Of a stretch of DNA of 54,956 nt, positions 13,390-47,415 are shown piece by piece. Every line of letters begins with the position of its first letter. Positions within the stretch are counted from its first letter, which is position 1. The notes beneath the pieces are model-generated. The model saw only the letters and a program-made list of their open reading frames with translations, had not been told where the DNA came from and ran no database searches. The translations under genes were made by a program, and so were the position numbers. This stretch comes from Pedosphaera sp. (GTDB lineage: Bacteria > Verrucomicrobiota > Verrucomicrobiia > Limisphaerales > SIBH01): positions 1 to 54,956 of the forward strand of contig JANOQV010000014.1 in NCBI GenBank assembly GCA_031414955.1, read 5' to 3'.

Positions 13390-13444
13390 AAGCTCCCCAT
13401 ACCAGACACCAAACTTCAAACAAACTCCAACCTACAAATTCCAA
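13390..13444 (-). repeat. 55-bp heptamer element, copy A
   Basis: ttggaat ttgtagg ttggagt ttgt ttgaagt ttggtgt ctggtat ggggagc tt, ending 7 nt upstream of the tRNA. Confidence 0.8.
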
Positions 13445-13506
13445 GAGTTCAACCGGCTGGCCGCCCCGGAAGCTGCCGCCACGGCGCGGATGAAGCGACC
13501 GCCGGA

Positions 13507-14133
13507 CTACGACTTCTTTTCCCGCGCCGCGTCAGCCGCGCGCCACAGGTACCAGGCGGCCGTGGTGCGATGCGGGCGCCACCGCTCGCCGAAGGCGAGC
13601 AGTTCCTTCGGCTTGGGCATCTCGGCCCACCGGTAGGCGTGACGAAATCCAGTGCGCACACCAAAGTCATCAATGGGCAGAATATCCTCCCGGCCCAATT
13701 GAAAGATGAGCAGCATCTCGACCGTCCATTGGCCCACCCCGCGCACGGCGGTCAACCGCGCAATGATTTCCGCGTCCTCGAGTTTCGCGATCTGGCGGGA
13801 GGAAGGCACCGTGCCATCGAGTGATTTGGCCGCAAGATCGCGCAGCGCGGCAACTTTGGCACCGGAGAAACCCGCGCCCCGAATGGCGACATCCTCCACT
13901 TGCTCAAGATCCTCCGGCCGGGGAAACCGGCGGCCGGGGAAGAGCTTGATGAAGCGCTGGAGAATGGTGTCCGCCGCCGTCCCGTTGAGTTGCTGATGCG
14001 CGATGGCCCGGGCCAGGGACTCGAAGGGCGAACGCCCCGCGCGCGGCCGCAATTCGCAGCGCCCGTGTTTCTGGATCAGGCGGCGCATGACGGCGTCCTT
14101 GGCGGTCAGATGTTTCAGGGCATCGGCAGTCAC
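13507..14133 (-). CDS. alkA: DNA-3-methyladenine glycosylase II (HhH-GPD, AlkA family)
   Basis: Probable GTG start; FESLARAIAHQQL, LTAVRGVGQWT (HhH), PIDDFG, WRPHRT. Confidence 0.88.
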   Translation of the reverse strand: MTADALKHLTAKDAVMRRLIQKHGRCELRPRAGRSPFESLARAIAHQQLNGTAADTILQRFIKLFPGRRFPRPEDLEQVEDVAIRGAGFSGAKVAALRDLAAKSLDGTVPSSRQIAKLEDAEIIARLTAVRGVGQWTVEMLLIFQLGREDILPIDDFGVRTGFRHAYRWAEMPKPKELLAFGERWRPHRTTAAWYLWRAADAAREKKS

Positions 14134-14252
14134 TTGGTGGGTGATGTTAGTTTCCCCTGGCTCAAGCTCCAGCCGGAAAACTGCGCGGCCCATCCGCGCC
14201 GGGCTTGCTTCGCCGGCCCGGCCGCCCTACCACGAGCGGCAGCGACTCATTT

Positions 14253-15008
14253 GTGAAACTCATTTCCTGGAACGTGAACGGATTGCGCGCCGTGCTGCGC
14301 AAAAATTTCCTCGAGTTCATCGAAGCGGAAAAGCCGGATGTGCTCTGCCTGCAGGAGACGAAATGCACGCCGGAGGACATCGAGGGGCTTTGGACGGCGC
14401 GTTTCTCCAGCCACTGGAATTCCGCGGAGAAGAAGGGCTATGCTGGCACCGCCATCTTCGCACGCACGCCGCCCATCAAGGTCACGACTGGAATCGGAGT
14501 GCCCGAACACGACCGCGAAGGACGAGTTGTCACGGCCGAGTTTGCGGACTTCTTCGTGGTCAATGTTTACGTCCCGAATGCCCAGCGCGAACTGACGCGC
14601 CTGGTCTATCGTCAGGAGTGGGATCGCGATTTCTTGCGCTACTTGAAGAAGCTGGAGCGCCGCAAGCCGGTGATTTTCTGCGGCGACTTGAACGTGGCCC
14701 ACACCGAGATCGATCTGGCCAATCCCAAGGCCAACGTGAAGAACCACGGTTTCACGCCGGAGGAGCGCGCGGGTTTCAGCGCCGTGCTTCAGGCCGGCTT
14801 CATTGACACCTTCCGCGAGTTTGAGCCGGGCGGTGGACATTACACCTGGTGGAGCCGGATGCCGGGAGTGCGGGCGCGGAACATCGGGTGGCGGCTGGAT
14901 TACTTTCTGATGAGTGCGGCCCTGCGACCGAGGTTGAAGCGGGCCTTCATCCTCCCGGACGTGACCGGCTCCGACCATTGTCCGGTGGGGATTGAATTGG
15001 GGCGGTAG
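14253..15008 (+). CDS. xth: Exodeoxyribonuclease III / AP endonuclease
   Basis: GTG start KLISWNVNGLRA, LQETK, YVPN, GDLNVAH, GWRLDY, GSDHCPV. Confidence 0.95.
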   Translation: MKLISWNVNGLRAVLRKNFLEFIEAEKPDVLCLQETKCTPEDIEGLWTARFSSHWNSAEKKGYAGTAIFARTPPIKVTTGIGVPEHDREGRVVTAEFADFFVVNVYVPNAQRELTRLVYRQEWDRDFLRYLKKLERRKPVIFCGDLNVAHTEIDLANPKANVKNHGFTPEERAGFSAVLQAGFIDTFREFEPGGGHYTWWSRMPGVRARNIGWRLDYFLMSAALRPRLKRAFILPDVTGSDHCPVGIELGR

Positions 15009-15078
15009 CCTGGTGGCCTCAAGTCATTTTCGGCCCGGGGGGGCTGGACAGGTTGCGGCTTTGCCGGTGCCCATCAAA

Positions 15079-17283: not shown

Positions 17284-17515
17284 TCGGCCAAAGGCTATAT
17301 CGTGCCGGAGAGGCGAGGACTAAAGGGCATCCCTCCCGGCGTGGCCCGCTCCGGCCCCAAGCCCGCCCCTGTTACGGCCACGCCGCTCATGGATCGATTG
17401 CCCAGGAGACGGTCCAGCGAAAGCAGCATTTCTGGACTCGGACCGATCAAACTCGGGGGCGTTCGGGTCAGGTCCTCCTTGCGCTGCGGCCCGCCCTGTC
17501 GTCTCATTCGCGGCC

Positions 17516-18436: not shown

Positions 18437-18455
18437 CCGCCTTGGTCAGCGGCGG

Positions 18456-20327: not shown

Positions 20328-20482
20328 GCCTCAACAAACAGACCGCTTCCAAGGGCGTGTTCCGCCCAGACGCTGCCACTTGAACTTCATTTTCATTCCT
20401 GCGATTGGACTGAGGTTTGCTGAAAGAGCGGCTCCGAGCAAAAAAGAATTTCAATTTGAGCCAGATGATTCATTGTGCAGCC

Positions 20483-21460: not shown

Positions 21461-21469
21461 AATCCCGCC

Positions 21470-23488
21470 GTGTCTCGCGAGTACGTGCTGCAACCCTTTC
21501 ATGCGCCGGTCGAACTGCAAATCGACTACGCGCACGAACTCAATGAGCAGCAGCACGCCGCCGTCACCGCGCTGCCGGGACCGGCACTGGTCATCGCCGG
21601 CGCGGGTTCGGGCAAGACGCGCACGCTCACCTATCGTGTCGCGTATCTGCTGGAGCAGGGCATTCCGCCTGACCGCATCCTGCTGCTCACCTTCACCAAC
21701 AAGGCCGCGCGCGAGATGATGCGGCGCGTGGCGGACTTGCTCGGGCGCGACCTGCCGGAGTTGTGGGGCGGCACGTTTCATTCCATCGGGGTACGGGTCT
21801 TGCGCCGGCACGCGGAACTGGTGGGCTTTCGTCCCGACTTCACCATTCTCGACCGCGAGGATTCGAGCGATCTGCTCAAGACCTGCATCGCCGAGGCGGA
21901 GATTGATGTGAAGGCCACGCGCTTTCCCAAGGCCGACGTGGTGAACGACATCATCTCCATGGCGCTGAACACTCATCGCAGCGTGGCCGAAGTGGTGGCC
22001 CAGGATTACGATTACTTTGCCGCGCTCGCGCCGCAGATTGCTGATATCGCCGGGCGCTATCGCAAGCGCAAGCAAGCGGCGAACGTGATGGATTTCGACG
22101 ACCTGCTCGCGCTCTGGCTCAAGCTGCTCCAGGAGCACGAGGACGTGCGCGAACGGTTTCAGCGCCGCTTCCAGTTCATCCTCGTGGACGAGTATCAGGA
22201 CACGAACAAGCTCCAGAGCGACCTCATCGACCTGCTCGGCGCGAAGCACCGGAACGTGATGGTGGTGGGTGATGATTCGCAGAGCATCTACTCGTGGCGC
22301 GGCGCGAACTTCCGCAACATCCTCGAATTTCCGAAACGCTACCAGGGCGCGAAGACCTACAAGATCGAAGTCAATTACCGCAGCACGCCCGAGATTCTGT
22401 CCGTGGCCAATGCCGCCATTGCCGCCAACACCGAGCAGTTCACCAAGGAACTCACGGCGGCGAAGAAGTCCGGTCCCAAGCCCGTGCTCGTGACCTGTGG
22501 CGACGCAAATCAGCAGGCCTCCTTCATCGCGCAGCGCGTGCTGGAACTGCGCGAAGAAGGGCGCAGCATGAACGAGATGGCCGTGCTCTACCGCTCCCAC
22601 TTCCACGCCCTGGAACTGCAACTGGAATTCACCCGGCGCAACATCCCGTTCAGCATCACCAGCGGCATCCGCTTCTTCGAGCAGGCCCACATCAAGGACG
22701 TGGCGGCGTATCTCAAGCTCGTGACCAACTCGACGGACGAGCTTTCTTTCAAGCGCCTCGTGATGATGCTGCCAGGTGTGGGCGGAAAGGGCGCGGCGAA
22801 GTTGTGGGCGGCTTTCGCCCAGAAAATTCAAGATCCAGGATCCAAGGTCCAAAGTCCGCTCGCGGCGACGGTCCAGGGTTGTGCCAAGTCCGTGCCCAAG
22901 AAAGCGGAGAAAGCCTGGGCGCAATTCGCCATCACGCTTTCCCAGATCGAGATCGAGCCAGTGCGATCTCAGCCGTGGGAGATGATCCGCATCATCATTG
23001 AGGCCGGCTACGAGGATTATTTGCAGGAGACTTTTGCCAACTACCGCAACCGCCTCGAAGATCTGGAGCAACTCGCCAGCTTTGCCCGCACCTTCAAGTC
23101 CACGGCGGAGTTCCTGACCCAGCTCTCGCTCCTGACCAACCTCGAGGCGAACGACCAAGGCGCGAAGTCCAAGGACGACGAGGAGCAGATTCGACTTTCC
23201 ACCATTCATCAGGCCAAAGGTCTCGAGTTCGACGTCGTGTTCATCATCATGCTGTGCGACGGGCTGTTCCCCTCCGCGCGCTCCAGCGAATCCGTCGAGG
23301 GCGAGGAGGAAGAGCGCCGCCTGTTTTACGTCGCCATCACCCGCGCGCGCGATGAGTTGTATCTCAGCCACCCGCTCATGCGTGCCATGCAAGCCTACGG
23401 CGGCGATGCCATGCAGGAACCCTCTCGCTTCCTGAAGGAGCTTCCGCCGGAGTTGATCGACGAATGGAGCCTCAGCACGTACGGCTGA
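21470..23488 (+). CDS. pcrA: ATP-dependent DNA helicase, UvrD/PcrA family
   Basis: IAGAGSGKT, LTFTNKAA, LVDEYQDTN, VGDDSQSIY, NYRST, TIHQAKGLEF, EEERRLFYVAITRA. Confidence 0.93.
   Translation: MSREYVLQPFHAPVELQIDYAHELNEQQHAAVTALPGPALVIAGAGSGKTRTLTYRVAYLLEQGIPPDRILLLTFTNKAAREMMRRVADLLGRDLPELWGGTFHSIGVRVLRRHAELVGFRPDFTILDREDSSDLLKTCIAEAEIDVKATRFPKADVVNDIISMALNTHRSVAEVVAQDYDYFAALAPQIADIAGRYRKRKQAANVMDFDDLLALWLKLLQEHEDVRERFQRRFQFILVDEYQDTNKLQSDLIDLLGAKHRNVMVVGDDSQSIYSWRGANFRNILEFPKRYQGAKTYKIEVNYRSTPEILSVANAAIAANTEQFTKELTAAKKSGPKPVLVTCGDANQQASFIAQRVLELREEGRSMNEMAVLYRSHFHALELQLEFTRRNIPFSITSGIRFFEQAHIKDVAAYLKLVTNSTDELSFKRLVMMLPGVGGKGAAKLWAAFAQKIQDPGSKVQSPLAATVQGCAKSVPKKAEKAWAQFAITLSQIEIEPVRSQPWEMIRIIIEAGYEDYLQETFANYRNRLEDLEQLASFARTFKSTAEFLTQLSLLTNLEANDQGAKSKDDEEQIRLSTIHQAKGLEFDVVFIIMLCDGLFPSARSSESVEGEEEERRLFYVAITRARDELYLSHPLMRAMQAYGGDAMQEPSRFLKELPPELIDEWSLSTYG
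22824..22858 (+). repeat. In-frame heptamer run inside the helicase
   Basis: aaattca agatcca ggatcca aggtcca aagtccg, encoding KIQDPGSKVQSP. Confidence 0.7.
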
Positions 23489-23629: not shown

Positions 23630-23833
23630 CAGCGCCGGAGGCGCGGCAGAGAGTAGCCCACGGCGTGAGCCGTGCGACCATTCGTTCCGGGAGACCGCAG
23701 CCCCAGCGGGGCGGCAGAACCGCGACCCCAGTGGCGAGGTGGGTCTTCTGTCGCCCCGCTGGGGCTGGAGCCTTCGGCGACGTGATCCCACGGCTCACGC
23801 CGCGGGCTATTCTCTGCCGCCGCGCTGCGGCTG
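23630..23833. repeat. ~200-bp nested palindromic element (REPIN/MITE-like), copy 1
   Basis: Outer arms cagcgccggaggcgcggcagagagtagcccacggcgtgagccgtg / cacggctcacgccgcgggctattctctgccg...gctg; inner arms cagccccagcggggcggcagaa / ttctgtcgccccgctggggctg; second copy at 54765. Confidence 0.9.
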
Positions 23834-31700: not shown

Positions 31701-34700
31701 CGCGAAATCAAAATCCACCGCGCTGCGCAGATGCCAGGTGTTCGTGAAGTGGTTCGGGTCGAACAACGCCACCGCGCTGGCGCTGGCGTTGTGCAATTCG
31801 ATGAACTCGTCGCGCGCATTGTCGTTCGTGCCCAACTCGGGCGGATGATAATGAATCTCGCTGATCACCACCGCTCCGACCTGGGGATACGCATTCGTGG
31901 CCCCGCTCCCGGTGCGGAACTGCTCGACACTGGCCGGACTGTCCACGCCCAGAGTGCGCGAACTCAGCGCCGGAAAATCAAACCCGATGCTGGTCTCGAA
32001 GCGTCCGAACGTGACCCCGTTGGCCTGCGCGCCGAAGTCCACCGACGCGCGGTAGCCGGTCAGATTGCCGTTGGTGTCCGTGACCGAGAGGAAGATTTCG
32101 TCCCCGTTCGCCGAACTGAGCGAGAAGCTGGGAAAGAGCAGCGTGGGATTGAACTGATTTTCGTACAAGACGGTGAAGCCGCCGGGCTGGAGGATGGTGT
32201 TATCCGCAATGCGGAACTTGCGCGGCTCGAGTTGGGAGTCGCTGAGATACCAGCCCCCGATGTCGATGGGCCGGGCGGTGGGATTAAACAGCTCGATGGC
32301 ATCCTCCAACGGCGGATCGGAGTGAGTGAGCGCCTCGTTCATGACCACGTCCTCGAAGGGCAGGAAATTTGCCTGGCCCGGCGTGGGCGTCCTCGGGAAG
32401 CGGACGCGGTTGGTGGCACCGTCCGGGAAACGGCCTTCCGAAACGCCGCTCTGTTGCAGGCCGAAAGTAACCGCGTCGATCTGGGTCAATCCATCGGTGG
32501 CGAAGAATCCCACCGCCTCGCCCGATCCAGCCAGGCGGAAGTTCACATGGTCCGCGCCCGCGCCCGGATTGTTGTCCGCGATGAACTGGACGAATCCGCG
32601 CCCGCCCAGACCAATGAACGAGAGGTTGGGGATTTTGTACTGCGTGCGGCTGATCAGATTGTCCGTGAGATAAAAGCCGCCTAACGCCACGGGCTGCGCG
32701 TTGGGATTGAAGAGCTCGAAGTAGTCATCGTCGCCGCTCTTCGCATCGGCCATCCACTCGTTGACCCGCACCGTCGCAGCGCTGGCCAGGGATGCGGCGA
32801 GGTTCAGACTTCCCTCCGTCGGCAGCGTCAGTCCCCACGCGCCCACTCCGTTCGGCACACGACCGATGGTGAAGTCCGCCGCCTGCAAACCAAACTGCAC
32901 CGAGTCGAAGAGCGCGCCGCCCCGCGACAGCTTGTCGAACAACAACACCTCGTCGCCACTGGCCTTGAAGCCAAAGCCGGTGTTGAGTCCTGGTCCCGCG
33001 TTGGTGCTGGCCGGTGTGCCGGAATCAAACTTCACCGTCAGGTAGCCGAGCGCCGGCACGGCCGCGCCCGCCGGGAAAACCCAGCGCCTCGGCACGGCCA
33101 CGTCATCGCTCAGACTCATGTCGCCCACGTCCACCGGGCTGGCGGTGGGATTGTAGATTTCAATCCAGTCCGTGATCAATCCGTCGGCATTCGTGTAACT
33201 CTGGTTGTTCGCCATCACCTCGTTCAAGGCGATGGCCGTGGCGATGAAGTTGGTCACGGACTTGACCGCGTAGAGCGACAGGCCGAACACATCGTCGCTG
33301 CTCCCGTTGTCGCTTTGATGCACCTCGACCGCGATCACATTGTCGCCTTCGACCAGCGCCGTGCTGGAGAGGGCGATGACTTCCGGCTGTCCTTCGCTGC
33401 CCTGGGTCTGCGCCTGGGAGGTAAAGAGGACCGGATTGGCGGTGACGCGCAGCCGTCCGGCCTCGACGCCGTTGAGGTAAATGACCGCGCCGTCATCGAG
33501 ATAATTGGTGGCGAAGAACTGCCAGCCGGAGCCATTGGTCCATTGGAAGTGCGTCCGGTAATAAACGGTGATCGGCCCGCCGTTCTGCGGCGATGGACTG
33601 AAGGTGTTGAAGGGAAACGGGTAAAGCCCTGGAGAAGTCTCAAAGCCAAAGAGGCCGCGCCCCGCCGGCCAGCCGGAGTCATCGAAGGCCGCCGGCAACC
33701 AGTCCGTCTCGAAATCAAACCCGGTGTCGTTGTAGCGCCAGATCTGGTTGGTCACGCCGAACAGCACGGCCAGGCTGTTGCTCACCGTGATGCTCACGCT
33801 GCTGAACGGATTCGGCGAACCGGGCGTGGGCAGCGAGAACATGGCCCGCGCGTCACCGCCGTTGGGGGAGCGACCTTCAGAGATGTCCGTCGCCTGCGGT
33901 CCATAAATGACACAATCGATCAGCACGCCCGCCGGGCTGAACAAGGCAATCGATCCCTGCACGGGCGACAGCTTGAAGGAAAGGTGATCGGCCCCCTGCC
34001 CTGCGTCCGCGTCGGCGATAAACGGAAGGTAAGCCCCGCCCGCGATGAAACTCAGCGCCGGCACCTGGTGCAGCAACGGCGCGCTGGCCGGCGCATCGCT
34101 GAAGAACGAACCACCGATGTTTACCGGCAGTGAATCCAGGTTGAGCACCTCCACAAAATCTTCGCCCACCGTGGCGTCGGCCAGCCACTCGTTGATCTTC
34201 AACCGGGAGAGATCACCGAGAGGATACGGCGTGTTGGCCGCCCCAAGCGTGGGATAAGACAGACCCCACGAACCACCGGTCAGCCGGCCCAAGGACAAAT
34301 CCTCAAGCTGCAAGCCGAACGAAATCGAGTCCAGCAATGCACCGCCACCCGCACTGGATTCGTAGAGGTAAATCGAGTCGCCGCGCTCGCTGAGGGCGAA
34401 ACCGAGATGGATGCCGCTGGTGACTTTCGATTCGTCGGCATAAACCAGCAGATACTGGCCCGGCCCCAGGGTCGTGTTGGTCGGGAAGGCGAACTTGTAG
34501 TGGTTGTTTGGGTCATCCGTAATCCCCTTCCCCGCGAGGTTCACCGCGTTGGTCCCGGGGTTGAACAGCTCAATCACATCCGGTGTTTCGCCCTCGTGCG
34601 GGAAGGCCAGCCGGTTTACCGCCAGCACCTCGTTGAGCAGCACGCGACCGGGCTTGTTCGTCACCACCCAGGTGCGCGATGACGAGGCCAGCGCCGTCGA

Positions 34701-37700
34701 ACCAAAAAACAAATCATCCTGATACAACCCCGAGTCGCGCCGGCCCGACACATCGACCCGGTGTGAACCAGTCCCGAGACCGGCGAGCGCAATGGGCGTG
34801 GCCAGCGGCGTCTCGGCGCTCCACGCGCCGCCGTCGAGCCGCCACTTGTAATGAGTGAAGCCTGAACCGTCCGTCCAGCCGGGCACGGCGCGATTCACGC
34901 CCACCACCAGCGTGGCGCCGTTCGTCGCGGTGGTGGCTTCCGGCTCGCCGGAAATCGAAGCGCCCGTCGGCACCACGCCGCCACGGTCACGTCCATTCGG
35001 CCCCGTGCCCACTGCCGGTGAACCGGCCCGCACCGCAAACCATTCGCGCAACACCTGCGCCTGTTGCCAGGTGGTGAAGTTCGTCGTCTCGGACCACTGC
35101 GGCACGCGCACAAAGAGCGGATCGTTGGTCGAGTTGCCCGAACCGGGACCGGCCCAGGTGAAAGGCATCAGGTTGTGGTTGAAGGTAATATTGCTCGCGA
35201 GCGCGGTTCCGTTCGTCACGTTGCGGGTCAATCGTTGGGCATCGTAAATCACGTTGCCCTCCGCGAACAGGCCGCTCGCCAGAGCGATGCCGTCGTCACC
35301 GAAGTTCAGCACCGCCGCCGTGGCCGCGTCGCCGAAGCCCGCGCCCGTCTGTCGCACCACCGTGTTGTTGAGGAAGGTGTAAAAGTTCCCCTGCTTGGCC
35401 GTGGCCGCCTGATCCACGTCGTAGAAAATGTTACCTAGGACCGTGATCTCGGAAGTCTGGCCGCTGTCGTTGCCACCACTCACGCCGCTGGCGGAATCGG
35501 GGGAGCCGTTGCGATGCACATGCAGGAAGATGTTGCCCTCGACCCAGGCGTCCGTGCCGTCGAGATCGAGGATGTCGTCGTCGCTGCCCGTGAAGACGTT
35601 CTCGATGAAGTGGACGATGGGACCAGGACGGTTGCCGCCGGTGAAATCAATCGTGTCGTTGTAGCCGTTGACCTTGCCGCAAAAGTTCCGCACGAAGACG
35701 CCGTGACCACCGGTGCGGATGCCACCCGTGCCGTGGATGGGTTCAATGCTCGCAGTGGTGGCGGGAAAGTGGCAGTGGCTCACGAGGAAGGATGCGCCGT
35801 CGAGATTGAGATAGCGGACGCCCGTCGCGCCGAAAGTCAGGTGGTCAAGATAGACCTCGCCACCCTGCACGTTGATGGCCGAGCTGCTGTTGAATTCGAG
35901 ATGTGCGTAGGCGAGGCGCGTCTCGGGAGAACCAGGCGTGCCGTTGACGATGAGACCGCCCCAGGTCGCACCGGAGCCGGGCACGCGCGTGAAACGTATC
36001 GGCGCAGTGGCCGTGCCTTCGGCCAGCAACCGCCCGCCATCGGCCACGTTGAGGGACGCGCCGGAGTTGAAGAAAACGCTCGCGCCCGACTGGATGGTCA
36101 GGGTCACGTCGGCATTGATGGTCAACGCGCCGGACACGGTGAACGGCCCGTTGGCCGCCGTCCAGGTCGCGTCGCTGCTGATCGCGCCGGAGACAGCCGT
36201 GCCCGCGACATTGCGCCAGATGTCGATATTGGCCGTCGCGATCTCGACACCGTTGCTGTTGAGCGCCTGCACCAGCACGCGGTTCACGCCGGGCTGCAAG
36301 GCCACGCTGGCATTTGTCCAGCGCGCCTCCCAGGCCGACCAGACGGAGGTGGATCCATTGACCAGCACGGTGCGCGTGTGGATGGCATCCGAGAAACCAA
36401 ACAACGTGGCCGTGGCCGAACTGCTCTGCGGATAGCCGCCCACCACGGGCAACGACGACTGAATGGAAATGGCGAGCGGGATCTGCGAGCGCACGTAGGC
36501 GTTGCGATTGGTGGCAGAGGTCTTCATCGCCGTGATGGTGGCCGCCGGCACCCACGAACCGAGCGCGTCATCCATGGTTCGCGACAGTTCGGCGTTCGAG
36601 AAAGTCGTATCGAGCAATCGATTCAAGGTCGCAAAGTAGGTGGGGACAAACTCCGGGTGCTTCAGGAAGCGGTTGATCGTGCTCAGGGCCGTGGCGCGAA
36701 AGAGATTGGTGCCGGTCGAAAAGTTAGGCCCGGAGCCTTGGCCGTAAATCGTGTCCCAGTCATGGACCAGCAATTTGAAACGCGGATCGATCCCGCCGCG
36801 GTACATCCCAAAATCATCGCCGAAGCCGGTGCCCAGACTCGTCTCGCCACTGATGGTCAGCGTGTAGAGGGCGAAGTAGAGCATCCATTGCTCCACGTTC
36901 ACCGCCTGCCGCACCGTCGGCACGTAATTCGCATCGCTCGTGTTGGGCGAGAGCGCGAAGGTGAGATTCATCAGGTCGGTCCAGTCATTCTCGGTCGAGT
37001 TGTTCTGCTTGGAATAACCCGCGCTGGTGTAAGAAGGAACGCTCGTGCCGAGATAACCGAGCGACGCCGAATGACTGCCAGTCGAGGCGCGGTAAATGTT
37101 GCCGCCGTTGTCCTGCGGGAAATGCGCGTCCACGAATTCGCCGCCCGGCACCTCGGTGGCGACGTAGGAGCCAAACTGCGGCGAGTTGGCCAGGGCGAGA
37201 TTGGCCCCATTGACCCGCACCTGCACGGCGCGAGCGGTCTCGGCGTCCATGCCGGATCTCGCCGCCAGGGCATAGCCCGCCAGTTGGGAGTGGGTGAACT
37301 GGGTGTTCAGGTTGATCTGCGACACGCCCTTCCACGGACGATCCGAGGAAATGTTCAGCCGGTAGTTCGGCGGATTCTGTCCGCGGCTGCCGGCGCCGCG
37401 AATGCGCAGGCCATTCAAGTGGCGCAACTCGGACGACGTGCCATCGATGCTGATGAATGTCGCGTTCATCTGCGCGTCGCTGTTGCGGTCTCCGCTGGTG
37501 TTGTTGAGGGTCGTCAGTTCCGCGCGCTCGGTTTCGTTCATGAGCACGCGATAGAACGGCTGCCCGCCGCCGTAACTGGAGTCGTCCACTTGCAGGAGCG
37601 CGTTGGCGGATTGCGAGAACACGCCGTCGATGCTGGCCGGGGCCGGCCAGGAGTTCGTGACGCCGGAGGCGGTTACGGCTTCGACATAGTATTCGAGCAC

Positions 37701-38552
37701 GGTCAGATTCGGACGGGCGGCGAGTACCGTGCCATAGACATCATCGCCCGCCCCGCCATCGCCGCTCAGGCCGTTGTCATTCATCACCTCGGCGGTGAAT
37801 GGATTGGACTGGGGGTTGGCATCCACACGGTAGAACAAGCGCACGGTCACGCCGGTGCCGGGCGGAACGACGACTCGGGCGGCGATGGTAATGACGTTCG
37901 TCGAGCGCGGGACGAGCGGGAGATGGGCGGTGTCGAGCACAAGGGCACGGGAATTGAAGCTCTGGACGGAATTGGCCGCACCAGGCGTGCCCCCATCGAC
38001 CGTGCTGGCCACCCAGTTCTGGCCCGAATCGCGCGGTAGATTCCGGTTCACCAACTCAACGGACTTTCCGGTGCCCGAGTGCGGCGTGAGCCAGTCCCAA
38101 CCGCGATGATTATTGTCCAGGGGCCCGCGAATACGCTGCCCCCAGTCGCCTTGGTCGGCATAGGTGATTTCATCAATCTTGCTGCCGAGAGGGTCTTCGA
38201 GCCGGATGGTTTCCCCGCCATTGGCCAGTGCGCCGAGCCAGCCGCCGATGATATAATCACCATCCACGCCAGGATGCGCCGGAATAAACGTCGCCAGATT
38301 CGCCGCCACAACCACGAAGCCGCCGGGGTGAATAATCTGCGACGGAAAGGCAAAGTTGACGCCCTTGGTGAATTTCCAACCCAGCAGATTCACCGTGTTC
38401 GTCCCGGCGTTGTAGAGTTCGACCCATTCCTCATTCGTGCCGTGCGACGCGGAGTCGTACATCAACTCGTTGATGATGATGGATTGCGCGCGGGCCGGCG
38501 CAGGCACCAGGCAGGCAAGAGCGATAAAGAAGCAAAACAGGGGTCGAATCAT
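28743..38552 (-). CDS. Giant secreted protein: 7 lamin-tail domains, CotH kinase, beta-helix, Ig, Calx-beta and Big domains
   Basis: 3269 aa with signal peptide; seven (I/L/V/M)(N/S)E...(D/E)x(I/V/F)E(L/I/V)xN...TPG-type units; CotH-like RIRGAGSRG...NYRL...DFGMY...HDWD; YQW..NG...G.Y.V Ig repeats; Calx-beta-like FTVTRNG...GTDY. Confidence 0.9.
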   Translation of the reverse strand: MIRPLFCFFIALACLVPAPARAQSIIINELMYDSASHGTNEEWVELYNAGTNTVNLLGWKFTKGVNFAFPSQIIHPGGFVVVAANLATFIPAHPGVDGDYIIGGWLGALANGGETIRLEDPLGSKIDEITYADQGDWGQRIRGPLDNNHRGWDWLTPHSGTGKSVELVNRNLPRDSGQNWVASTVDGGTPGAANSVQSFNSRALVLDTAHLPLVPRSTNVITIAARVVVPPGTGVTVRLFYRVDANPQSNPFTAEVMNDNGLSGDGGAGDDVYGTVLAARPNLTVLEYYVEAVTASGVTNSWPAPASIDGVFSQSANALLQVDDSSYGGGQPFYRVLMNETERAELTTLNNTSGDRNSDAQMNATFISIDGTSSELRHLNGLRIRGAGSRGQNPPNYRLNISSDRPWKGVSQINLNTQFTHSQLAGYALAARSGMDAETARAVQVRVNGANLALANSPQFGSYVATEVPGGEFVDAHFPQDNGGNIYRASTGSHSASLGYLGTSVPSYTSAGYSKQNNSTENDWTDLMNLTFALSPNTSDANYVPTVRQAVNVEQWMLYFALYTLTISGETSLGTGFGDDFGMYRGGIDPRFKLLVHDWDTIYGQGSGPNFSTGTNLFRATALSTINRFLKHPEFVPTYFATLNRLLDTTFSNAELSRTMDDALGSWVPAATITAMKTSATNRNAYVRSQIPLAISIQSSLPVVGGYPQSSSATATLFGFSDAIHTRTVLVNGSTSVWSAWEARWTNASVALQPGVNRVLVQALNSNGVEIATANIDIWRNVAGTAVSGAISSDATWTAANGPFTVSGALTINADVTLTIQSGASVFFNSGASLNVADGGRLLAEGTATAPIRFTRVPGSGATWGGLIVNGTPGSPETRLAYAHLEFNSSSAINVQGGEVYLDHLTFGATGVRYLNLDGASFLVSHCHFPATTASIEPIHGTGGIRTGGHGVFVRNFCGKVNGYNDTIDFTGGNRPGPIVHFIENVFTGSDDDILDLDGTDAWVEGNIFLHVHRNGSPDSASGVSGGNDSGQTSEITVLGNIFYDVDQAATAKQGNFYTFLNNTVVRQTGAGFGDAATAAVLNFGDDGIALASGLFAEGNVIYDAQRLTRNVTNGTALASNITFNHNLMPFTWAGPGSGNSTNDPLFVRVPQWSETTNFTTWQQAQVLREWFAVRAGSPAVGTGPNGRDRGGVVPTGASISGEPEATTATNGATLVVGVNRAVPGWTDGSGFTHYKWRLDGGAWSAETPLATPIALAGLGTGSHRVDVSGRRDSGLYQDDLFFGSTALASSSRTWVVTNKPGRVLLNEVLAVNRLAFPHEGETPDVIELFNPGTNAVNLAGKGITDDPNNHYKFAFPTNTTLGPGQYLLVYADESKVTSGIHLGFALSERGDSIYLYESSAGGGALLDSISFGLQLEDLSLGRLTGGSWGLSYPTLGAANTPYPLGDLSRLKINEWLADATVGEDFVEVLNLDSLPVNIGGSFFSDAPASAPLLHQVPALSFIAGGAYLPFIADADAGQGADHLSFKLSPVQGSIALFSPAGVLIDCVIYGPQATDISEGRSPNGGDARAMFSLPTPGSPNPFSSVSITVSNSLAVLFGVTNQIWRYNDTGFDFETDWLPAAFDDSGWPAGRGLFGFETSPGLYPFPFNTFSPSPQNGGPITVYYRTHFQWTNGSGWQFFATNYLDDGAVIYLNGVEAGRLRVTANPVLFTSQAQTQGSEGQPEVIALSSTALVEGDNVIAVEVHQSDNGSSDDVFGLSLYAVKSVTNFIATAIALNEVMANNQSYTNADGLITDWIEIYNPTASPVDVGDMSLSDDVAVPRRWVFPAGAAVPALGYLTVKFDSGTPASTNAGPGLNTGFGFKASGDEVLLFDKLSRGGALFDSVQFGLQAADFTIGRVPNGVGAWGLTLPTEGSLNLAASLASAATVRVNEWMADAKSGDDDYFELFNPNAQPVALGGFYLTDNLISRTQYKIPNLSFIGLGGRGFVQFIADNNPGAGADHVNFRLAGSGEAVGFFATDGLTQIDAVTFGLQQSGVSEGRFPDGATNRVRFPRTPTPGQANFLPFEDVVMNEALTHSDPPLEDAIELFNPTARPIDIGGWYLSDSQLEPRKFRIADNTILQPGGFTVLYENQFNPTLLFPSFSLSSANGDEIFLSVTDTNGNLTGYRASVDFGAQANGVTFGRFETSIGFDFPALSSRTLGVDSPASVEQFRTGSGATNAYPQVGAVVISEIHYHPPELGTNDNARDEFIELHNASASAVALFDPNHFTNTWHLRSAVDFDFATNTWIAAGGFLVVVGFDPQTNATDLAAFRLRYGLSPAVPLVGPWNGKLNNGDDEIRLNRPDAPNLGDVPYILVERIHYRDSAPWPSAADGNTNGSGVSLQRAVALNYANDPVNWRAALPTPGASNGAAVLAPPVFTVQPTNRTVLPGTAVSMTALATGVAPLTYQWRWNGVDLAGATNAAYAIVSAQTTNAGLYSVRAVNPAGAALTTNALLTIQAGPQIVYQPLGRTVAAGGTASFTVGAIGTGPLNYQWWKDGGSVLGATQPTLVLTNVQAPDLGIYLVVITNSFGSTTSAPAALQLSVPPQIVAQPINRTVIIGATVSFEVGVTGSAPLYYQWLFNGVTLSGATSTNLVFTNVQPARSGTYSVLVSNAVGSALSSNATLLVIVPPTVTIAATDPGAAEQGLNPGVFTVTRNGSNNFPVTVNFSVAGGALNGTDYQSISSQVTIPAGTNAATITILPVDEATIEADELVTLTLLAAPEYLIGSPSNATVTIVDNDNLPPVVVITTPTNGTFVPFTPTNLLLAATASDPNPGQGVSVTFYFGPNAVSPLLAAPYQFTWTNPPTGSNLLFAVATDALGRNATSAPVALSINGPPLVSIASPTNGAALPGPGNIGITATATDTNGGVARVDLYVGGVLLASLTNAPYFATLSNAPLAAYQTYAVARDPFGLVSTSAVVNFSVVLASTNLADSFNGRGILNGFTNFLTGNNNAATLEVNEPNHYFTHAVKTMWLEWTAPASGLVTMDTVGSAFDTILVVYTNRPGLPLNFTSLVQMAVSDDASGLQSSVTFPAIYGTTYYIVVAGYDTSTPNGGAVQFRLGLPGGPFISAQPASRTNDVGTSASFTVAASGQSALVYQWRFNGVNIGGASGANFTRTNVQLVHAGNYDVRVVNSFGSVTSAVALLTVRDSLPLPFSILRPRLSNGVFSATLAGGSTNRSYAIEVAPNLTNWTTLLTVSNLSGEVSFTDTNSLPPTSISRGYRARLVP

Positions 38553-40821: not shown

Positions 40822-40868
40822 CCAAACGAAAAGAGCAGGCGCGAAGCCTGGCCCCTACCTGCTCTTTC
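40822..40868 (-). terminator. Probable terminator after greA
   Basis: aaagagcagg (40830..40839) / cctgctcttt (40858..40867) inverted repeat followed by a T-rich tail on the minus strand. Confidence 0.5.
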
Positions 40869-40889
40869 TCCTGAAGCTGCGCCGCCGGC

Positions 40890-42752: not shown

Positions 42753-42800
42753 AAAGATCAAATTTCTCGCCGACACCCGAGCGAACTGGATTATTAGAAG

Positions 42801-44105
42801 GTGACTTTTGAAAAACCAAGGGAAATGTCTTTGCGGCTGCTCCTGCAACGTGAGTCAGGCCGTGACTACATTGAAAATCTCCTCGAAGCCGCGCTGGCCG
42901 CCTCGAGTTTGAGCAGCCCCGATCGCGGGCTGCTCCAGGAACTCGTTTATGGCGTGGTCCGCTGGCAGGCCACGCTCGACTGGCTCATCGCGCGAAAGAC
43001 CGCTGGCCGTCCACAGAAGCCGGGGCTGCAAATCCTGCTCCGGCTCGGGCTGTATCAAATCTTCTGGCTCTCTCGCATCCCTGATCATGCGGCAGTGAAC
43101 GAGACCGTCGAAATCGCACGCCAGCAGGGCTTCGGACCTCAGGCGGGTTTTGTGAACGCCATCCTGCGAGGCTACCTCCGCGAGCGTGACGAGACGCAAC
43201 GCGCCCTCGGCGAACTCAAGCAATCCGATCCTGCGCTGGCCGCCTCGCATCCCGGATGGCTGTGTGCGCGCTGGGAGAAACATTTCGGGCGCGAAGCCCT
43301 CTCCCACCTGCTCGAATGGAACAACACGCCCCCCAGCACCTTCGCCCGCGTGAACACCCTCCGCGCCGAGCCGGAAAAACTGCGCGCGCAGTGGGAACGC
43401 GAGAAAGTGTCGGCCCGGTTGATGCCGATCGAGTGGGCCGACCAGACCATGGTCTATGCGCTGGAATCATTTCCCCCGCTGGCCACCCTGCCGAGTTTTC
43501 GCGACGGGCTGTTCTACGTCCAGGATCCGAGCACCCTCCTGGCGGTGGCACTACTCGACCCGCAGGCGGGTGAAACTATTCTTGATCTGTGCGCTGCGCC
43601 CGGCGGTAAGACCACCTACATCGCCGAACGAATGCGGAACCACGGGACCATCATCGCTCACGACATCGCGCCTGATCGGCTGAAGCTCGTTACGGAGAAC
43701 TGCGGCCGGCTCGGCGTGACCTGCGTCACCCCCACCCTGCCCTCCACGCTCCACGCTCCACCCTCAACTCTCTTCGACCGCATTCTCATCGATGCGCCGT
43801 GCAGCAATACGGGCGTGATGCGCCGGCGCGTCGATTTGCGCTGGCGCATCCGCGAGGCGGAAATTTCCCGGCTGCGCGCCACCCAACTTCAACTCCTGAG
43901 TGAGGCGCTGCCGCAGCTCAAGCCCGGGGGCACGCTCGTTTACAGCACCTGCAGTCTGGAGCCGGAGGAGAACGCCGATCTGGTGCGCGAATTTGTGAAG
44001 GAGAATCCGACGATGCACGTACAGCGCGAACGCTCGTTGACGCCTTGGACAGACCACACGGACGGCGCGTACGTGGCGCGTTTGGTCAAGGCGACCGCAC
44101 CTTGA
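42801..44105 (+). CDS. rsmB: 16S rRNA m5C967 methyltransferase RsmB (Sun)
   Basis: NusB-like N-terminus (ELVYGVVR, LRLGLYQ, HAAVNE), YVQD, DLCAAPGGKT, DAPCS, YSTCS...EEN. Confidence 0.95.
   Translation: MTFEKPREMSLRLLLQRESGRDYIENLLEAALAASSLSSPDRGLLQELVYGVVRWQATLDWLIARKTAGRPQKPGLQILLRLGLYQIFWLSRIPDHAAVNETVEIARQQGFGPQAGFVNAILRGYLRERDETQRALGELKQSDPALAASHPGWLCARWEKHFGREALSHLLEWNNTPPSTFARVNTLRAEPEKLRAQWEREKVSARLMPIEWADQTMVYALESFPPLATLPSFRDGLFYVQDPSTLLAVALLDPQAGETILDLCAAPGGKTTYIAERMRNHGTIIAHDIAPDRLKLVTENCGRLGVTCVTPTLPSTLHAPPSTLFDRILIDAPCSNTGVMRRRVDLRWRIREAEISRLRATQLQLLSEALPQLKPGGTLVYSTCSLEPEENADLVREFVKENPTMHVQRERSLTPWTDHTDGAYVARLVKATAP
43740..43767 (+). repeat. In-frame heptamer run inside rsmB
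   Basis: ccctcca cgctcca cgctcca ccctcaa, encoding PSTLHAPPST just before FDRILIDAPCS. Confidence 0.65.
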
Positions 44106-44134
44106 AGTGGCCGCCAGAAAACTGCGGCCGTGCC

Positions 44135-44182
44135 GGTTGGGCGTCGCCGTCCTCAGCGCGCCGGGGACAGCGACGCCCTGCC
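44135..44182. repeat. Degenerate GTAG-type REP doublet
   Basis: ggttgggcgtcgccgtcctcagcgcgcc followed by ggggacagcgacgccctgcc (inverted partner); similar to 23565..23592. Confidence 0.6.
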
Positions 44183-44295
44183 CGCACCAGCACTTCCGAG
44201 CACATCGCACAACAACCCTCCTTTTGATGCTGCCGTCCTCCACTCAAGATTGACGTCACCCCGCAAACCGTGTGCAGTGACACCCATTCCATCAC

Positions 44296-45321
44296 ATGAA
44301 GAAATACAACGTCGGCATCATCGGTTATGGCTGGGTTGCGAGCGCACACATTCCCGCCATCAACGCCAGTTCGCAGGCCCAGGTCACGGCCATCTACTCC
44401 TCGCGTCCGCTCGACGATTTGGAAGTGAGCGCCAGGCACGGCAGTTCGATTCGCACGTACACCGATCTCGCTGAGATGCTGGCCGACGAAAGCCTCCACG
44501 CCATCTCCGTGTGCAGCTATCCCTACCAGCACACCAAGCACGTCATCGCAGCGGCCAAGGCCGGCAAGCATGTCATTGTGGAGAAACCACTCGCGCTCTC
44601 GTGGAAGGATTGTCTCGCCATCAAACGCGCCGTGGACGCCGCCGGCGTGCAGACATGCGTCTGCTTCGAGTGCCGCTTCTCCAGCCAATTCCTCACCACC
44701 AAGGCGGTCATTGATGAAGGACTGCTCGGCGAACTGCACTACGGCGAAGTCGATTACTACCACGGTATCGGACCCTGGTACGGGCAGTTCCGCTGGAACA
44801 CGCGCAAGGACGCCGGCGGCTCCTCACTCCTCACTGCCGGCTGCCACGCGCTCGACGCCCTGCTGCTCTGCATGGGCCAAGACGTGACCGAAGTCACCAG
44901 CTACGACACCAAGTCGAAGAGCAAAATCTTCGAGCCCTACGAATACACGACCTCGAGCGTGACCATCCTCAAGTTCAAGAGCGGCAAAATCGGCAAATGC
45001 GCGGCCATCGTGGATTGCCTCCAGCCCTATTACTTCCACACGCACCTCGTCGGCAGCGAGGGCAGCCTGCTCGACAACAAGTTTCATTCAATGAAGCTCG
45101 GCGGCCTGAACAAGAACGCGTGGAGCAACCTCTCCATGAAGATGCTCGATTCCGGCGACGTATCCGACCATCCCTACACCACGCAGTTTCAAGCCTTCTT
45201 CGACGCGTTGGACAAAGGCAAGAAGATGCCGCTGACCAGCCTCGACGACGCCATCAAGACGCACGAAATCATCTTCGCGGCGGACAAGTCGGCGGCGACG
45301 GGAAAGACGGTGAAGCTCTAA
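44296..45321 (+). CDS. Gfo/Idh/MocA family oxidoreductase
   Basis: VGIIGYG, AGKHVIVEKPLA, GGSSLLTAGCHALD. Confidence 0.92.
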   Translation: MKKYNVGIIGYGWVASAHIPAINASSQAQVTAIYSSRPLDDLEVSARHGSSIRTYTDLAEMLADESLHAISVCSYPYQHTKHVIAAAKAGKHVIVEKPLALSWKDCLAIKRAVDAAGVQTCVCFECRFSSQFLTTKAVIDEGLLGELHYGEVDYYHGIGPWYGQFRWNTRKDAGGSSLLTAGCHALDALLLCMGQDVTEVTSYDTKSKSKIFEPYEYTTSSVTILKFKSGKIGKCAAIVDCLQPYYFHTHLVGSEGSLLDNKFHSMKLGGLNKNAWSNLSMKMLDSGDVSDHPYTTQFQAFFDALDKGKKMPLTSLDDAIKTHEIIFAADKSAATGKTVKL

Positions 45322-45344
45322 TCGATTCCATGGACGACGGCCTG

Positions 45345-45485
45345 AAGATCCAAATCCCAAACTCCAAGCTCCAGGGAAACACCAAGCTCCAAGCTCCAAT
45401 CCTGCGTTGGACATCCACCAGACAGCCCGCTTGGTATTTGGTGTTTGGAGCTTCTCTAGATCTTGGATCTTGGATCTTGAGTCTT
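45345..45485. repeat. Inverted pair of 55-bp heptamer elements (copies C and D) with a 31-bp spacer
   Basis: C (minus, 45345..45399): ttggagc ttggagc ttggtgt ttcc ctggagc ttggagt ttgggat ttggatc tt. D (plus, 45431..45485): ttggtat ttggtgt ttggagc ttct ctagatc ttggatc ttggatc ttgagtc tt. Confidence 0.9.
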
Positions 45486-45510
45486 CGGCGATGGAGCCGC
45501 CCCAGCACCT

Positions 45511-46293
45511 ATGCCTAACCCTCGCGCCCTCGCCATTGCCGCGCACCCGGACGACATCGAGTTCGTAATGGCGGGTACTTTGTTGCGGCTCAAGGAGCGG
45601 GGTTGGGACATCCACTACTTCAACCTCTCCACCGGCAACTGCGGCAGCGCGCGCCACGATGCCGCCACCACGCGACGACTACGACTGGCCGAGGCCAAGC
45701 GCGCGGCAAAGATTCTCGGCGCGCATTTCCATCCGCCCCTCGCGGATGACTTGGAGATTTTCTTTGACCTGAAGCTCCTGCGCCGCGTCGCGGCCGTGCT
45801 TCGCGAAGTGAAACCGGTCATCGTCCTCACGCATTCGCCCGAGGATTACATGGAGGACCACATGAACACGTCGCGGCTCGCAGTTACGGCGGCCTTTGCG
45901 CGCGGCATGAGGAACTTCATCACCACCCCAAAGCACCGCGCCGTGGAAGGCGCGATCACGGTGTATCACGCCATGCCGCATGGGCTGTGCGATGGAATGC
46001 GCCGGCCCGTTGCCGCCGAACTGTTTGTGGACACCACAGCAGTTCACGCCACGAAACTCGCCGCGCTGGCCGAGCACCGCACGCAACAGGAATGGCTCGA
46101 CGTGAGCCAGGGCATGAACTCCTACCTCCAGAGCATGGACGCGATGTCGCGCGCGGTGGGGAAGATGTCGCGACGCTTCCGGCACGCCGAAGGCTGGCGG
46201 CGGCACTCGCATCTGGGCTTCTGCGCCGAGGCCGACGACCCACTGCGTGCGGCGCTCGGGAGCAAGACCGTGGGGCGAAATTCCAGACCCTGA
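45511..46293 (+). CDS. PIG-L/LmbE family deacetylase
   Basis: AIAAHPDDIE, R..EA, THSPEDYMEDH, HRTQ. Confidence 0.9.
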   Translation: MPNPRALAIAAHPDDIEFVMAGTLLRLKERGWDIHYFNLSTGNCGSARHDAATTRRLRLAEAKRAAKILGAHFHPPLADDLEIFFDLKLLRRVAAVLREVKPVIVLTHSPEDYMEDHMNTSRLAVTAAFARGMRNFITTPKHRAVEGAITVYHAMPHGLCDGMRRPVAAELFVDTTAVHATKLAALAEHRTQQEWLDVSQGMNSYLQSMDAMSRAVGKMSRRFRHAEGWRRHSHLGFCAEADDPLRAALGSKTVGRNSRP

Positions 46294-46315
46294 AAGACGC
46301 CAGAACAGCACCTGA

Positions 46316-47236
46316 TCAATGCCGTCGCGCCGGAGCCAGTTCGCCGGCGGGCACGGCGAAGGGCAACCAGTTCTGACGCGGCGGCAATGGGCAGGTGGCG
46401 AAGGCGGTGAAGCCGCAGGGCGGAGTGTAGGCGCGGTTGAAATCAATCACCACCTGGCCGCTGGGATCGGGTTTGGCCACGTAGAGGAAACGGCCCGAGG
46501 CATAGGTGGTCTGAGCGGCGGTCTGGTCGTGGAAGATGACGAAGTAGTCCTGCTCGCCGGGTTCCTCCACCACATCGAGTCGGTGCTCGGAGCCGCCGTG
46601 GGGGAAGACGATCGTGCCCGGCGAGACATATTCCTGGGTGCCGCCGAGCACGTCCTGAACCTGCAAGGTCCGCACAAATGGGGATGGCTCGAAGCGCCCC
46701 GCGACACGCCAGGCCGGATCGTAGGGAAAACATTTCAGCCCCTCGAACTGCGCGCGCGCCGGAGCCTGCGGATCGCGCACCCGCAACCCCAGCCGTTCGC
46801 CGCGTTCGATAAGCACGAAAGAGAGTTCACCGATGAGAAGCCTGGTCGGCTCGGCATTGGTGTCGGACTTAAATTCGGCCTGACGGACTGGCTGGCCGTC
46901 GATCGTGGCCACCACTCCGGGCGCGGCTTCGAACAAGATGGTTCGCCCGCGGCGCAGGAACGTGCCGACCTGCGGAACGGCGCGCGCGCGCGGGAGCAAG
47001 GCGTGGTTCGTCGGGTCGCTACCCACATGGTTGGCTCCCTCGACCAGCCAATGCCGCAAAATCAAGGTGGTCCAGCCATTCGAACCGGCGATGGATTCGC
47101 GCCGCTTGGCCTGCCAGGCCAGCCAATCGGTGGGGGCGGCAACGGCACTGACCACGGCGCGGGGACGGTCCGCCACTCGGGGGGCACAACTCGTGCAGCC
47201 CAAGGCCAGAAACAGGATTGACCAACAACAGCTCAT
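46316..47236 (-). CDS. DUF1684 domain-containing protein, probable lipoprotein
   Basis: ATG 47236 with LALGC; FHDQT...TYASGRFLY...IDFNRAYTPPCGFTAFATCPLPP..N.L motif. Confidence 0.88.
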   Translation of the reverse strand: MSCCWSILFLALGCTSCAPRVADRPRAVVSAVAAPTDWLAWQAKRRESIAGSNGWTTLILRHWLVEGANHVGSDPTNHALLPRARAVPQVGTFLRRGRTILFEAAPGVVATIDGQPVRQAEFKSDTNAEPTRLLIGELSFVLIERGERLGLRVRDPQAPARAQFEGLKCFPYDPAWRVAGRFEPSPFVRTLQVQDVLGGTQEYVSPGTIVFPHGGSEHRLDVVEEPGEQDYFVIFHDQTAAQTTYASGRFLYVAKPDPSGQVVIDFNRAYTPPCGFTAFATCPLPPRQNWLPFAVPAGELAPARRH

Positions 47237-47328
47237 GACGCGCAGGCTAGCGGGTCGGAAGGAGGGAGGGAAGCACTGGCGGATGGAAAGGCAGGGCAGA
47301 CTCATCCAATTTCGCGGTGTTTCGCACG

Positions 47329-47415
47329 AATGTCCCAAATCCCAAATCCCAAATAAATTCCAACGGCCCAAATTCCAAAACCAGGCGTTCGCAATGCGAT
47401 TGGAGTTTGGAATTT
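47329..47415. repeat. Heptamer element copy E (minus) with a truncated inverted partner
   Basis: Minus 47329..47378: ttggaat ttgggcc g ttggaat ttat ttgggat ttgggat ttgggac att; plus 47400..47415: ttggagt ttggaat tt. Confidence 0.8.

Follow-up and report, generated by a model that had tools for sequence, protein, structure and literature searches.

What is the 55-bp tract of heptamers that recurs five times between genes on one bacterial contig, and what places it there? The contig, JANOQV010000014.1 of Pedosphaera sp. (Verrucomicrobiota), is analysed here over its full 54,956 nucleotides (the window) as contig C14 of a 6.55-Mb genome in 313 contigs (G000). A sequence-only reading had described five AT-rich tracts built on three 7-nt units, a 4-nt spacer and four further units, and had suggested either an array for a periodic DNA- or RNA-binding protein or the ends of a non-autonomous mobile element. 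All five tracts were found at the positions that it claimed. Here we show that they are the two mirror-image arms of a common hairpin insert at start codons. The best overall explanation, which we consider fairly probable, is that this insert is a gene-less copy of a cassette carrying a gene for a four-helix-bundle protein. The first four arms, and the junction that holds the inverted pair, are laid out as follows (scores in bits come from the matrix described below; ORF, open reading frame):

13390-13444, minus strand: arm A, single and decayed, 47 bits
21406-21460, plus strand: single UG-rich arm, 71 bits, ending 9 nt before the likely pcrA/uvrD GTG start at 21470
44296-45321, plus strand: Gfo/Idh/MocA oxidoreductase gene (Pfam), upstream of the junction
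45330-45518, plus strand: relay mini-ORF of 62 codons, its ATG 8 nt past the Gfo/Idh/MocA TAA
45345-45399, minus strand: 5′ arm of the hairpin pair, CA-rich on the mRNA strand, 4x7 + 4 + 3x7
45400-45430, no strand: hairpin loop, 31 nt, unique
45431-45485, plus strand: 3′ arm of the hairpin pair, UG-rich, 3x7 + 4 + 4x7
45511-46293, plus strand: PIG-L deacetylase gene (Pfam), downstream of the junction

A hairpin insert with a fixed phase

The spacing of the units is conserved throughout the genome. With a model of three plus four units and a cut-off of at least 25 of 28, whole-genome scans at spacers of 0 to 7 nt returned 4, 0, 0, 3, 203, 33, 0 and 1 hits. A conserved spacer position, which the sequence-only reading had proposed as a test, is therefore found genome-wide. 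The 3x7 + 4 + 4x7 grammar stands with its 203 hits at the 4-nt step, whereas the claim that positions 5 to 7 of each unit are free does not: these positions are biased, mostly to A/G/T, A/G/T and C/T. A matrix trained on the best hits and cut at 30 bits or more finds 235 arms (118 plus, 117 minus) in the 6.55 Mb versus 2 in the reversed genome, which rules out chance matches, and four of the five window arms score 47-80 bits with this genome-trained matrix. The best-kept letters are YT at positions 1, 8, 15, 22, 26, 33, 40, 47 and 54 (66-100 % of arms), which sets them 7,7,7,4,7,7,7,7 apart along the arm. The conserved TT phase fits the array for a periodic nucleic acid-binding protein that had been envisaged.

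Could the arms be simple sequence repeats (SSRs), born by slippage and kept by chance? Units 4 to 7 are homogenised within arms, and heptamers are the commonest long SSR class (PMC4679880). Yet the fixed unit count and 4-nt step in 235 arms, which also bear out the earlier statement that this is not a simple microsatellite, the inverted pairing, the precise empty sites described below and the phase kept with other units make such an origin hardly credible. As the main cause, slippage is refuted by the fixed grammar and the empty sites.

The arms form 142 units: 49 are singles, and 93 are inverted pairs in which a loop joins a CA-rich arm to a following UG-rich arm. The tracts had been said to occur singly or as inverted pairs; the inverted pair proves to be the real unit, several singles having a decayed partner. 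A pair comprises two 55-nt AT-rich heptamer arms and a loop of 7-178 nt, giving an element of ~120-290 bp, and the window pair at 45345-45485 with its flanks folds at -70.3 kcal/mol (z = -4.06). Leaving aside copies carried by MITEs (miniature inverted-repeat transposable elements, treated below), there are 71 free pairs, whose loops are all unique (best local score among them, 25). Units 4 to 7 of both arms share one 'flavour' per element, with an identity of 0.6-0.8 versus 0.4 between elements. Hypermutation of the arms was considered but is not supported, as orthologous pstC-pstA arms match closely.

Start codons and reading frames

The 71 free pairs are placed at 62 co-directional, 3 divergent and no convergent junctions, with 5 inside gene calls and 1 at an edge, while convergent gaps make up 288 of the 2418 gaps of at least 100 nt. 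In 49 of 65 free pairs, versus 4 of 21 MITE pairs, no more than 25 nt separate the end of the UG-rich arm from a start, and at the opposite end a start codon lies 0-1 nt before the CA-rich arm in 32 of 62 pairs, compared with an ATG at the mirror position in 3 of 62. The orientation bias that the sequence-only reading had asked about is present: UG-rich arms stand just 5′ of start codons, and 0 of 65 free intergenic pairs occupy convergent junctions. Beside arm A the downstream gene is a tRNA, with the UG-rich strand ending 7 nt ahead of a CAT-anticodon tRNA (13307-13382, minus strand). ARAGORN calls it Met(CAT); the Ile2 reading is one that we take to be plausible.

In many of these junctions translation appears to be led through the hairpin. 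We speak of relay where an ORF opens on or close to the upstream stop, in most cases at -4, reads through the whole hairpin without interruption and terminates no more than 8 nt from the downstream start. By this definition the 62 free co-directional pairs comprise 41 relays, 9 in-frame fusions and 12 with neither. Adding 1 or 2 nt to the loop lowers the relays from 41 of 62 to 3 and 3, respectively; in a first set of 66 pairs, chimeric pairs gave a mean of 23 and a maximum of 34 versus 52 observed. Element-free gaps relay in 44 of 575 cases, and the main MITE subfamily in 0 of 10. The mini-ORF of the window is open across both arms and the loop, its stop overlaps the PIG-L start at 45511, and the same mini-ORF geometry with the same 192-nt gap recurs at metagenome locus L012. 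Judging from these frames, a mini-ORF would quite probably carry ribosomes across the hairpin, which suggests how a hairpin with a 55-bp stem can occupy ~60 operon junctions without cutting translation.

UG-rich arms encode hydrophobic stretches in all three frames (mean hydropathy 0.9-1.1), and several of the in-frame fusions read like signal peptides. One such protein, compared in 11 genomes including its own, has an arm-derived leader in 9, a decayed one in 1 and an ordinary short leader in 1. In a second protein the same leader site is filled across congeners by the window family or by one of two 9-nt families. Such fusions suggest that export signals can arise from repeat DNA by a repeatable route, and for annotation they carry a warning, as the arms produce false N-termini and small ORFs. 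Relay mini-ORFs and in-frame fusions, together with the ISAs1 MITE around copy E, go beyond what had been read from the window before.

Presence or absence at orthologous sites had been named as a further test, and sites are indeed polymorphic among congeners. None of 8 congeners has an insert at pstB-pstB2, where an ATGA overlap is found instead, and here ATGA stands on either side of the insert; pstA-pstB is likewise empty in 8 of 8, and of 7 evaluable congeners one has pstC-pstA filled, its arms being almost unchanged. At mreC-mreD, where ATGA again flanks the insert on both sides, 2 of 10 congeners are empty and 8 hold other heptamer families, and mreD-mrdA is empty in 4 of 11. On contig C301 the site at position 30057 is empty in 4 of 4, the start ATGA being kept at the left end of the insert and ATGA found on both sides, and the site at 23814 (C301:23814) is empty in 2 of 3. 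The pcrA/uvrD start has a window-family arm in 4 congeners, none in G004, and another repeat in a second G005 copy. Contigs of four public runs over 43500-48500 held no empty allele; one DNA contig spans the pair, with one difference, and the one RNA run has hardly any coverage there. Empty alleles together with kept start codons identify the start codons as the insertion points. At pstB-pstB2, mreC-mreD and C301:30057, ATGA on both sides is explained equally well by an ATGA borne by the element and by duplication.

The Gfo/Idh/MocA-PIG-L junction of the window is present in 63 of 90 loci. Among the matches listed it is short and empty in several, and many have other 7-, 9- or 10-nt hairpins or unrelated ORFs; L012 holds the window family with another loop. 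This junction is an insertion hot spot. Unrelated single-ORF inserts occupy it in L003, L004, L007, L009, L020, L286 and L299, some of them with ends that, we presume, recall integron cassettes, and in L287 a GxxExxY-like gene begins behind 10-11-nt repeats. Taken together, we hold the identity of the hairpins, their insertion points and their open frames with high confidence.

The same junctions might be read as host regulatory modules, whose mRNA arms would be bound or cut by the four-helix-bundle protein, by a host RNA-binding protein or by RNase III, so tuning a regulon. UG-rich arms close to starts, as in 49 of the 65 free pairs, speak for this, and at some sites (pcrA, set A) arms are retained across the genus. 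In the available parts of the sources, a similar role is proposed for the Beggiatoaceae TAACTGA repeats (PMC4679880), and RNase III cuts the stem of Coxiella's intervening sequence (IVS) (PMC4990558). However, the same junction in relatives is empty or holds the window family, 7-, 9- or 10-nt families or unrelated ORFs, pattern hits range from 0 to 118 within one genus, and the neighbouring genes have no common function. Since junction content and hit numbers vary so among relatives, turnover rather than a conserved regulon is indicated, and we regard a regulatory module as quite unlikely.

Alternatively, the repeats could be written or overwritten in place at start codons, by local templating or gene conversion and perhaps with the four-helix-bundle protein, the loop being local DNA. 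That every free loop is unique and that units 4 to 7 share one flavour within an element agree with such rewriting. So do an orthologous site with equal arm layout but different flavours and unrelated 26-nt loops, and the mreC-mreD congeners that, at a four-fold-site identity of 0.86, differ in the heptamer units of both arms. Nevertheless, the pstC-pstA arms of G000 and G007 match nearly unit by unit, as descent predicts, the empty alleles (ATGA overlaps) hold no DNA able to become a loop, and whole gene-bearing cassettes precede many different genes. We therefore think rewriting in place unlikely.

The fifth tract, copy E, lies in a different setting:

47292-47417, plus strand: truncated ISAs1-type MITE with its left terminal repeat at 47292-47306, holding copy E and a partial second arm at 47400-47415
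47329-47378, minus strand: copy E, with three distal units only, below the 30-bit cut

This MITE is 91 % identical over 121 nt to a complete MITE copy, and copy E is a passenger in it. The TG-rich strand had been placed just 5′ of a gene in four copies; for copy E this has to be amended, as it is not simply upstream of the DUF1684 gene but sits inside the MITE. The neighbour names given at the time, pcrA/UvrD, PIG-L deacetylase and DUF1684, agree with Pfam. Genome-wide, 40 of the 142 units lie inside MITEs with 15-nt ISAs1-type terminal inverted repeats and 102 have no such ends; in 16 of 26 bounded MITE copies the flanks agree in 8 or more of 10 letters, and C23:7505-8727 holds an intact ISAs1 transposase gene that has the same ends. 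Terminal repeats, 10-nt target duplications and a cognate transposase in the genome are the likeness to ISAs1-family MITEs, which concerns copy E alone (left end only). The difference is the interior, a heptamer hairpin, and the free copies show none of the MITE marks, which are absent from the 102 non-MITE units. The same ISAs1 ends also bound diverged hairpin lineages at C105:66292, C89:8574, C229:7860, C54:24438, C296:15465, C30:3478 and C61:2238. Several lineages with different loops inside the same ends indicate that the arms were kept while the other MITE interior drifted. An ISAs1 MITE has separately picked up one hairpin lineage and spreads 40 of the 142 units, copy E among them.

It might then be asked whether ordinary MITE biology, or that of repetitive extragenic palindromes (REPs), accounts for everything, a host transposase (ISAs1, or Y1/RAYT, the REP-associated tyrosine transposase) moving all copies with the four-helix-bundle gene as cargo. 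The 40 MITE-borne units, the intact ISAs1 and twelve Y1 transposase genes in the genome speak for it. But 102 units are without ISAs1 ends; the MITE copies are remote from starts (no more than 25 nt away in 4 of 21) and relay in 0 of 10 cases in the main subfamily; no arm is found within 1.5 kb of any of the 12 Y1 (PF01797) genes; and across genomes the arms go with the four-helix-bundle clade. All of this makes it very unlikely. A search of the same 12 genes for arms within 1.5 kb yielded no repeat-flanked Y1/RAYT gene of the REP/REPIN (paired REP) kind.

Four-helix-bundle cassettes

Similar 7-mer tracts beside four-helix-bundle genes had been mentioned in the sequence-only reading, and this link holds well beyond the window. 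One of the four PF05635 genes in the genome, C241:18056-18349, lies between arms of the window family: it stands between two CA-rich arms, and a loop and a UG-rich arm follow. Its protein matches TIGR02436 and 2RLD, and the predicted model (mean predicted local distance difference test, or pLDDT, 87) has 2RLD, 2GSC and Avd (4DWL/8UB7) as nearest folds. Among related PF05635/TIGR02436 loci, of which 80 of 136 were covered with 1 kb of flank, almost all belong to Verrucomicrobiota. In 62 of the 80 a CA-rich arm precedes and a UG-rich arm follows the gene, 47 of these being simple and 15 having additional arms; 16 loci have a single arm and 2 have none, so that 78 have at least one. With loaded cassettes bracketed by the same arms, the suggested 'ends of a non-autonomous element' gain support as well. 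The other three PF05635 cassettes of the genome (C217:29050-29361, C137:15599-15886 and C32:21037-21342) have inverted arrays of other units. Two of them have uninterrupted heptamer arms with the UG-rich arm first, the opposite orientation, and one has arms of 8-nt period; the reading frames are again coupled to the downstream ATG.

The phase is a property of these cassettes irrespective of the unit. In a unit-blind search 4 nt was the best step for 66 of the 80 arms upstream of the gene and likewise for 66 of the 80 downstream of it, versus 8 of 79 distal flanks. Twenty more cassettes, mostly from genomes lacking TTGG, showed the 4-nt step in 10 of 20 upstream and 16 of 20 downstream arms; their units were TTCG, TTAG and TTGA, and two to four arms preferred 5 nt. 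Over the 100 loci the unit varies (TTGG, TTCG, TTAG, TTGA) and the TT spacing of 7,7,7,4,7,7,7,7 is mostly kept. The window repeats are thus likely the gene-less form of a cassette with a four-helix-bundle gene (PF05635, Avd/S23p-like).

How would such a cassette spread? The insert would settle in sense orientation on a start codon or immediately behind it, and the mini-ORF would then be opened by the former start or by an ATG that the element brings at its 5′ end. Within operons, copies would survive if ribosomes are led in that frame across the hairpin as far as the downstream start, or if the frame fuses to it, in which case the UG-rich arm would encode a hydrophobic stretch usable as a signal peptide. 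The four-helix-bundle protein, probably as an Avd-like ring, would bind the single-stranded arms via their TT/AA spacing and would be needed in trans for spread. Avd is described, in the accessible portion of the source, as an RNA-binding pentamer in which flipped-out bases lodge in the crevices separating protomers (bioRxiv 10.1101/2023.10.23.563531); going by that portion, the crevices may serve as a model for reading a periodic strand, and the C241 protein is predicted to have the same fold (PDB 4DWL, 8UB7). We give recognition and mobilisation by the four-helix-bundle protein, suggested by the linkage and by Avd, about even chances. No transposase or reverse transcriptase (RT) is tied to the free copies. 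That this is an undescribed, transposase-free mobile element, in which a ring reads the TT/AA phase code and brings loaded or empty hairpins to translation starts, we put forward only tentatively, as somewhat doubtful. If true, one system would explain both the S23p-type rRNA intervening sequences and much of the bacterial heptamer excess, and new signal peptides would be created repeatedly.

Several results weigh against the gene-less cassette as the source of the hairpins, or against steps of the mechanism just given. The position counts rest on gene calls by a simple in-house caller. MITE-borne units are likewise missing from convergent junctions (0 of 38), and part of the bias may accordingly stem from selection and not from targeting; this weakens the argument from avoidance to targeting, though 8 of 17 classifiable Acido-Lenti-1 hairpins do lie in convergent junctions. 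One extra nucleotide in the loop makes 16 of 62 pairs score as fused, and the fusion class alone is therefore not above chance. A target duplication beyond the ATG was not found, a right-hand ATGA occurring in 25 of 41 cases versus 54 % genome-wide, with permutation tests not significant. Since each of the 71 free loops is unique, nothing points to one master copy having recently multiplied in a burst. Base-for-base covariation between arms was not found, their similarity being element-wide and not in register, and the G-U bias between arms is slight (189 G-U pairs versus 151 A-C mismatches), so selection on exact RNA pairing is not supported.

The cassettes themselves call for similar caution. 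In favour of the cassette reading, the arm unit tracks the protein subclade (8 changes versus 23 shuffled, in a quick tree of 100 proteins), but arms and gene travel in cis, and the tree consequently shows co-inheritance and cannot show co-evolution or binding. Cassettes precede 17 clusters of downstream ORFs, two sites holding 41 and 20 of 95; loaded cassettes, mostly at these two sites, look largely like vertical descent. Across 150 genomes of the order, the gene clade occurs in 40 and the TTGG pattern in 38. It also speaks for the link that the clade is present in 16 of the 17 genomes with at least 10 pattern hits, although kin are not independent in these counts; on the other side, 13 of the 40 clade-bearing genomes have no pattern hit and 11 of the 110 clade-free genomes have at least one.

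Known systems and other loci

In its behaviour the element recalls the MIRUs (mycobacterial interspersed repetitive units), on which Supply et al. (1997) are said to have reported. The available parts of two papers describe MIRUs as dispersed inverted repeats in operons, inserted at start codons, with an ORF overlapping the neighbours at -4; they are 40-100 bp long and G-C-rich, have tetranucleotide direct repeats and occur as empty and filled sites (PMC12548453, PMC3184786). Compared by these descriptions, operon insertion at start codons, the bridging ORF (41 of 62 here) and empty and filled sites are alike. The window element differs in being ~120-290 bp, AT-rich and made of phased heptamers, and in having a gene-bearing form; it does not agree with MIRUs in size or composition, and the parts of those papers that were available mention neither periodic arms nor a partner gene.

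In construction it is closer to the IVS of Coxiella burnetii 23S rRNA, which in the accessible text has an S23p/PF05635 ORF in its loop, tandem heptamers just before that ORF, and a mobility left unexplained (PMC4990558). As far as that text goes, terminal inverted repeats likewise enclose a PF05635 ORF in our loaded cassettes; the window copies are without the ORF. They lie beside protein and tRNA genes, and genome-wide the units are found between called protein genes or within them, outside 23S rRNA; the ORF is missing from most copies, the fixed 3+4 phase is kept in both arms, and the arms lie in frames read as open. Diversity-generating retroelements (DGRs) pair Avd with other parts: no RT, template or variable repeat stands beside the cassettes (within the 1 kb of flank covered for the 80 related loci), and neither of the genome's two RT loci has an arm within 1.5 kb or shares a contig with the cassette. 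One of these DGR-like loci (C267:10284-13428 and C8:10479-11898) has an HRDC-like small gene and an upstream secreted target, and the other an avd-like gene and a frameshifted RT, all labels assigned by reading the sequence.

Dispersed heptamer arrays are also known from Xanthomonas (GGGAATC) and Nostoc (GGGGA(C/T)T), where they are intergenic and near starts or stops (PMC4692102), and from Beggiatoaceae (TAACTGA; PMC4679880). By the accessible parts of these papers, they resemble the window arms in often having four units, often forming inverted pairs and lying close to start or stop codons. They differ in being uninterrupted, and 16 % of the Xanthomonas arrays lie between convergent genes. 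The same parts read them as G-quadruplexes or regulator sites and do not mention a four-helix-bundle link, a phase step or a relay ORF. Subscription papers and supplements aside, heptamer-armed four-helix-bundle cassettes or their empty copies were not found in the literature as a class. On the portions of the sources available there is a real case for an undescribed variant, one that works like a MIRU and is built like an S23p-bearing rRNA intervening sequence. It would join two loose ends, the role of the S23p/four-helix-bundle family and the bacterial heptamer-repeat excess, and a fixed phase with a unit that changes by protein subclade offers a sharp substrate for a binding test.

Other periodic sequences accompany the arms in the window and the genome. 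At Rfam 15 gathering scores no arm in the window has a match; the only matches, elsewhere, are one to a tRNA and four to Acido-Lenti-1. The latter (RF01687) form two inverted pairs of hairpins at 23631-23832 and 54766-54955, with 21 similar places genome-wide. Within genes there is one array of the same unit type:

22825-22852, minus strand: four-unit heptamer array, translated in frame within pcrA, no 4-nt step

Congener alignments break at this array, where G007 and G004 have a different in-frame palindromic repeat. Short 7-nt tandem runs of other units also occur inside the RsmB and Gfo/Idh/MocA genes (43742-43765 and 44820-44835). A parallel type of cassette is formed by PF13366 genes (GxxExxY-type, PD-(D/E)XK-like): 3 of 4 in the genome, at C19:21052-21396, C301:22897-23232 and C184:108917-109258, are bracketed within operons by inverted 9-10-nt periodic arrays, and the empty forms occupy the same junctions in relatives. 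Lastly, the window encodes a secreted-type protein of 3269 aa (28743-38552, minus strand) with seven lamin-tail domains, a CotH kinase domain and Ig domains.

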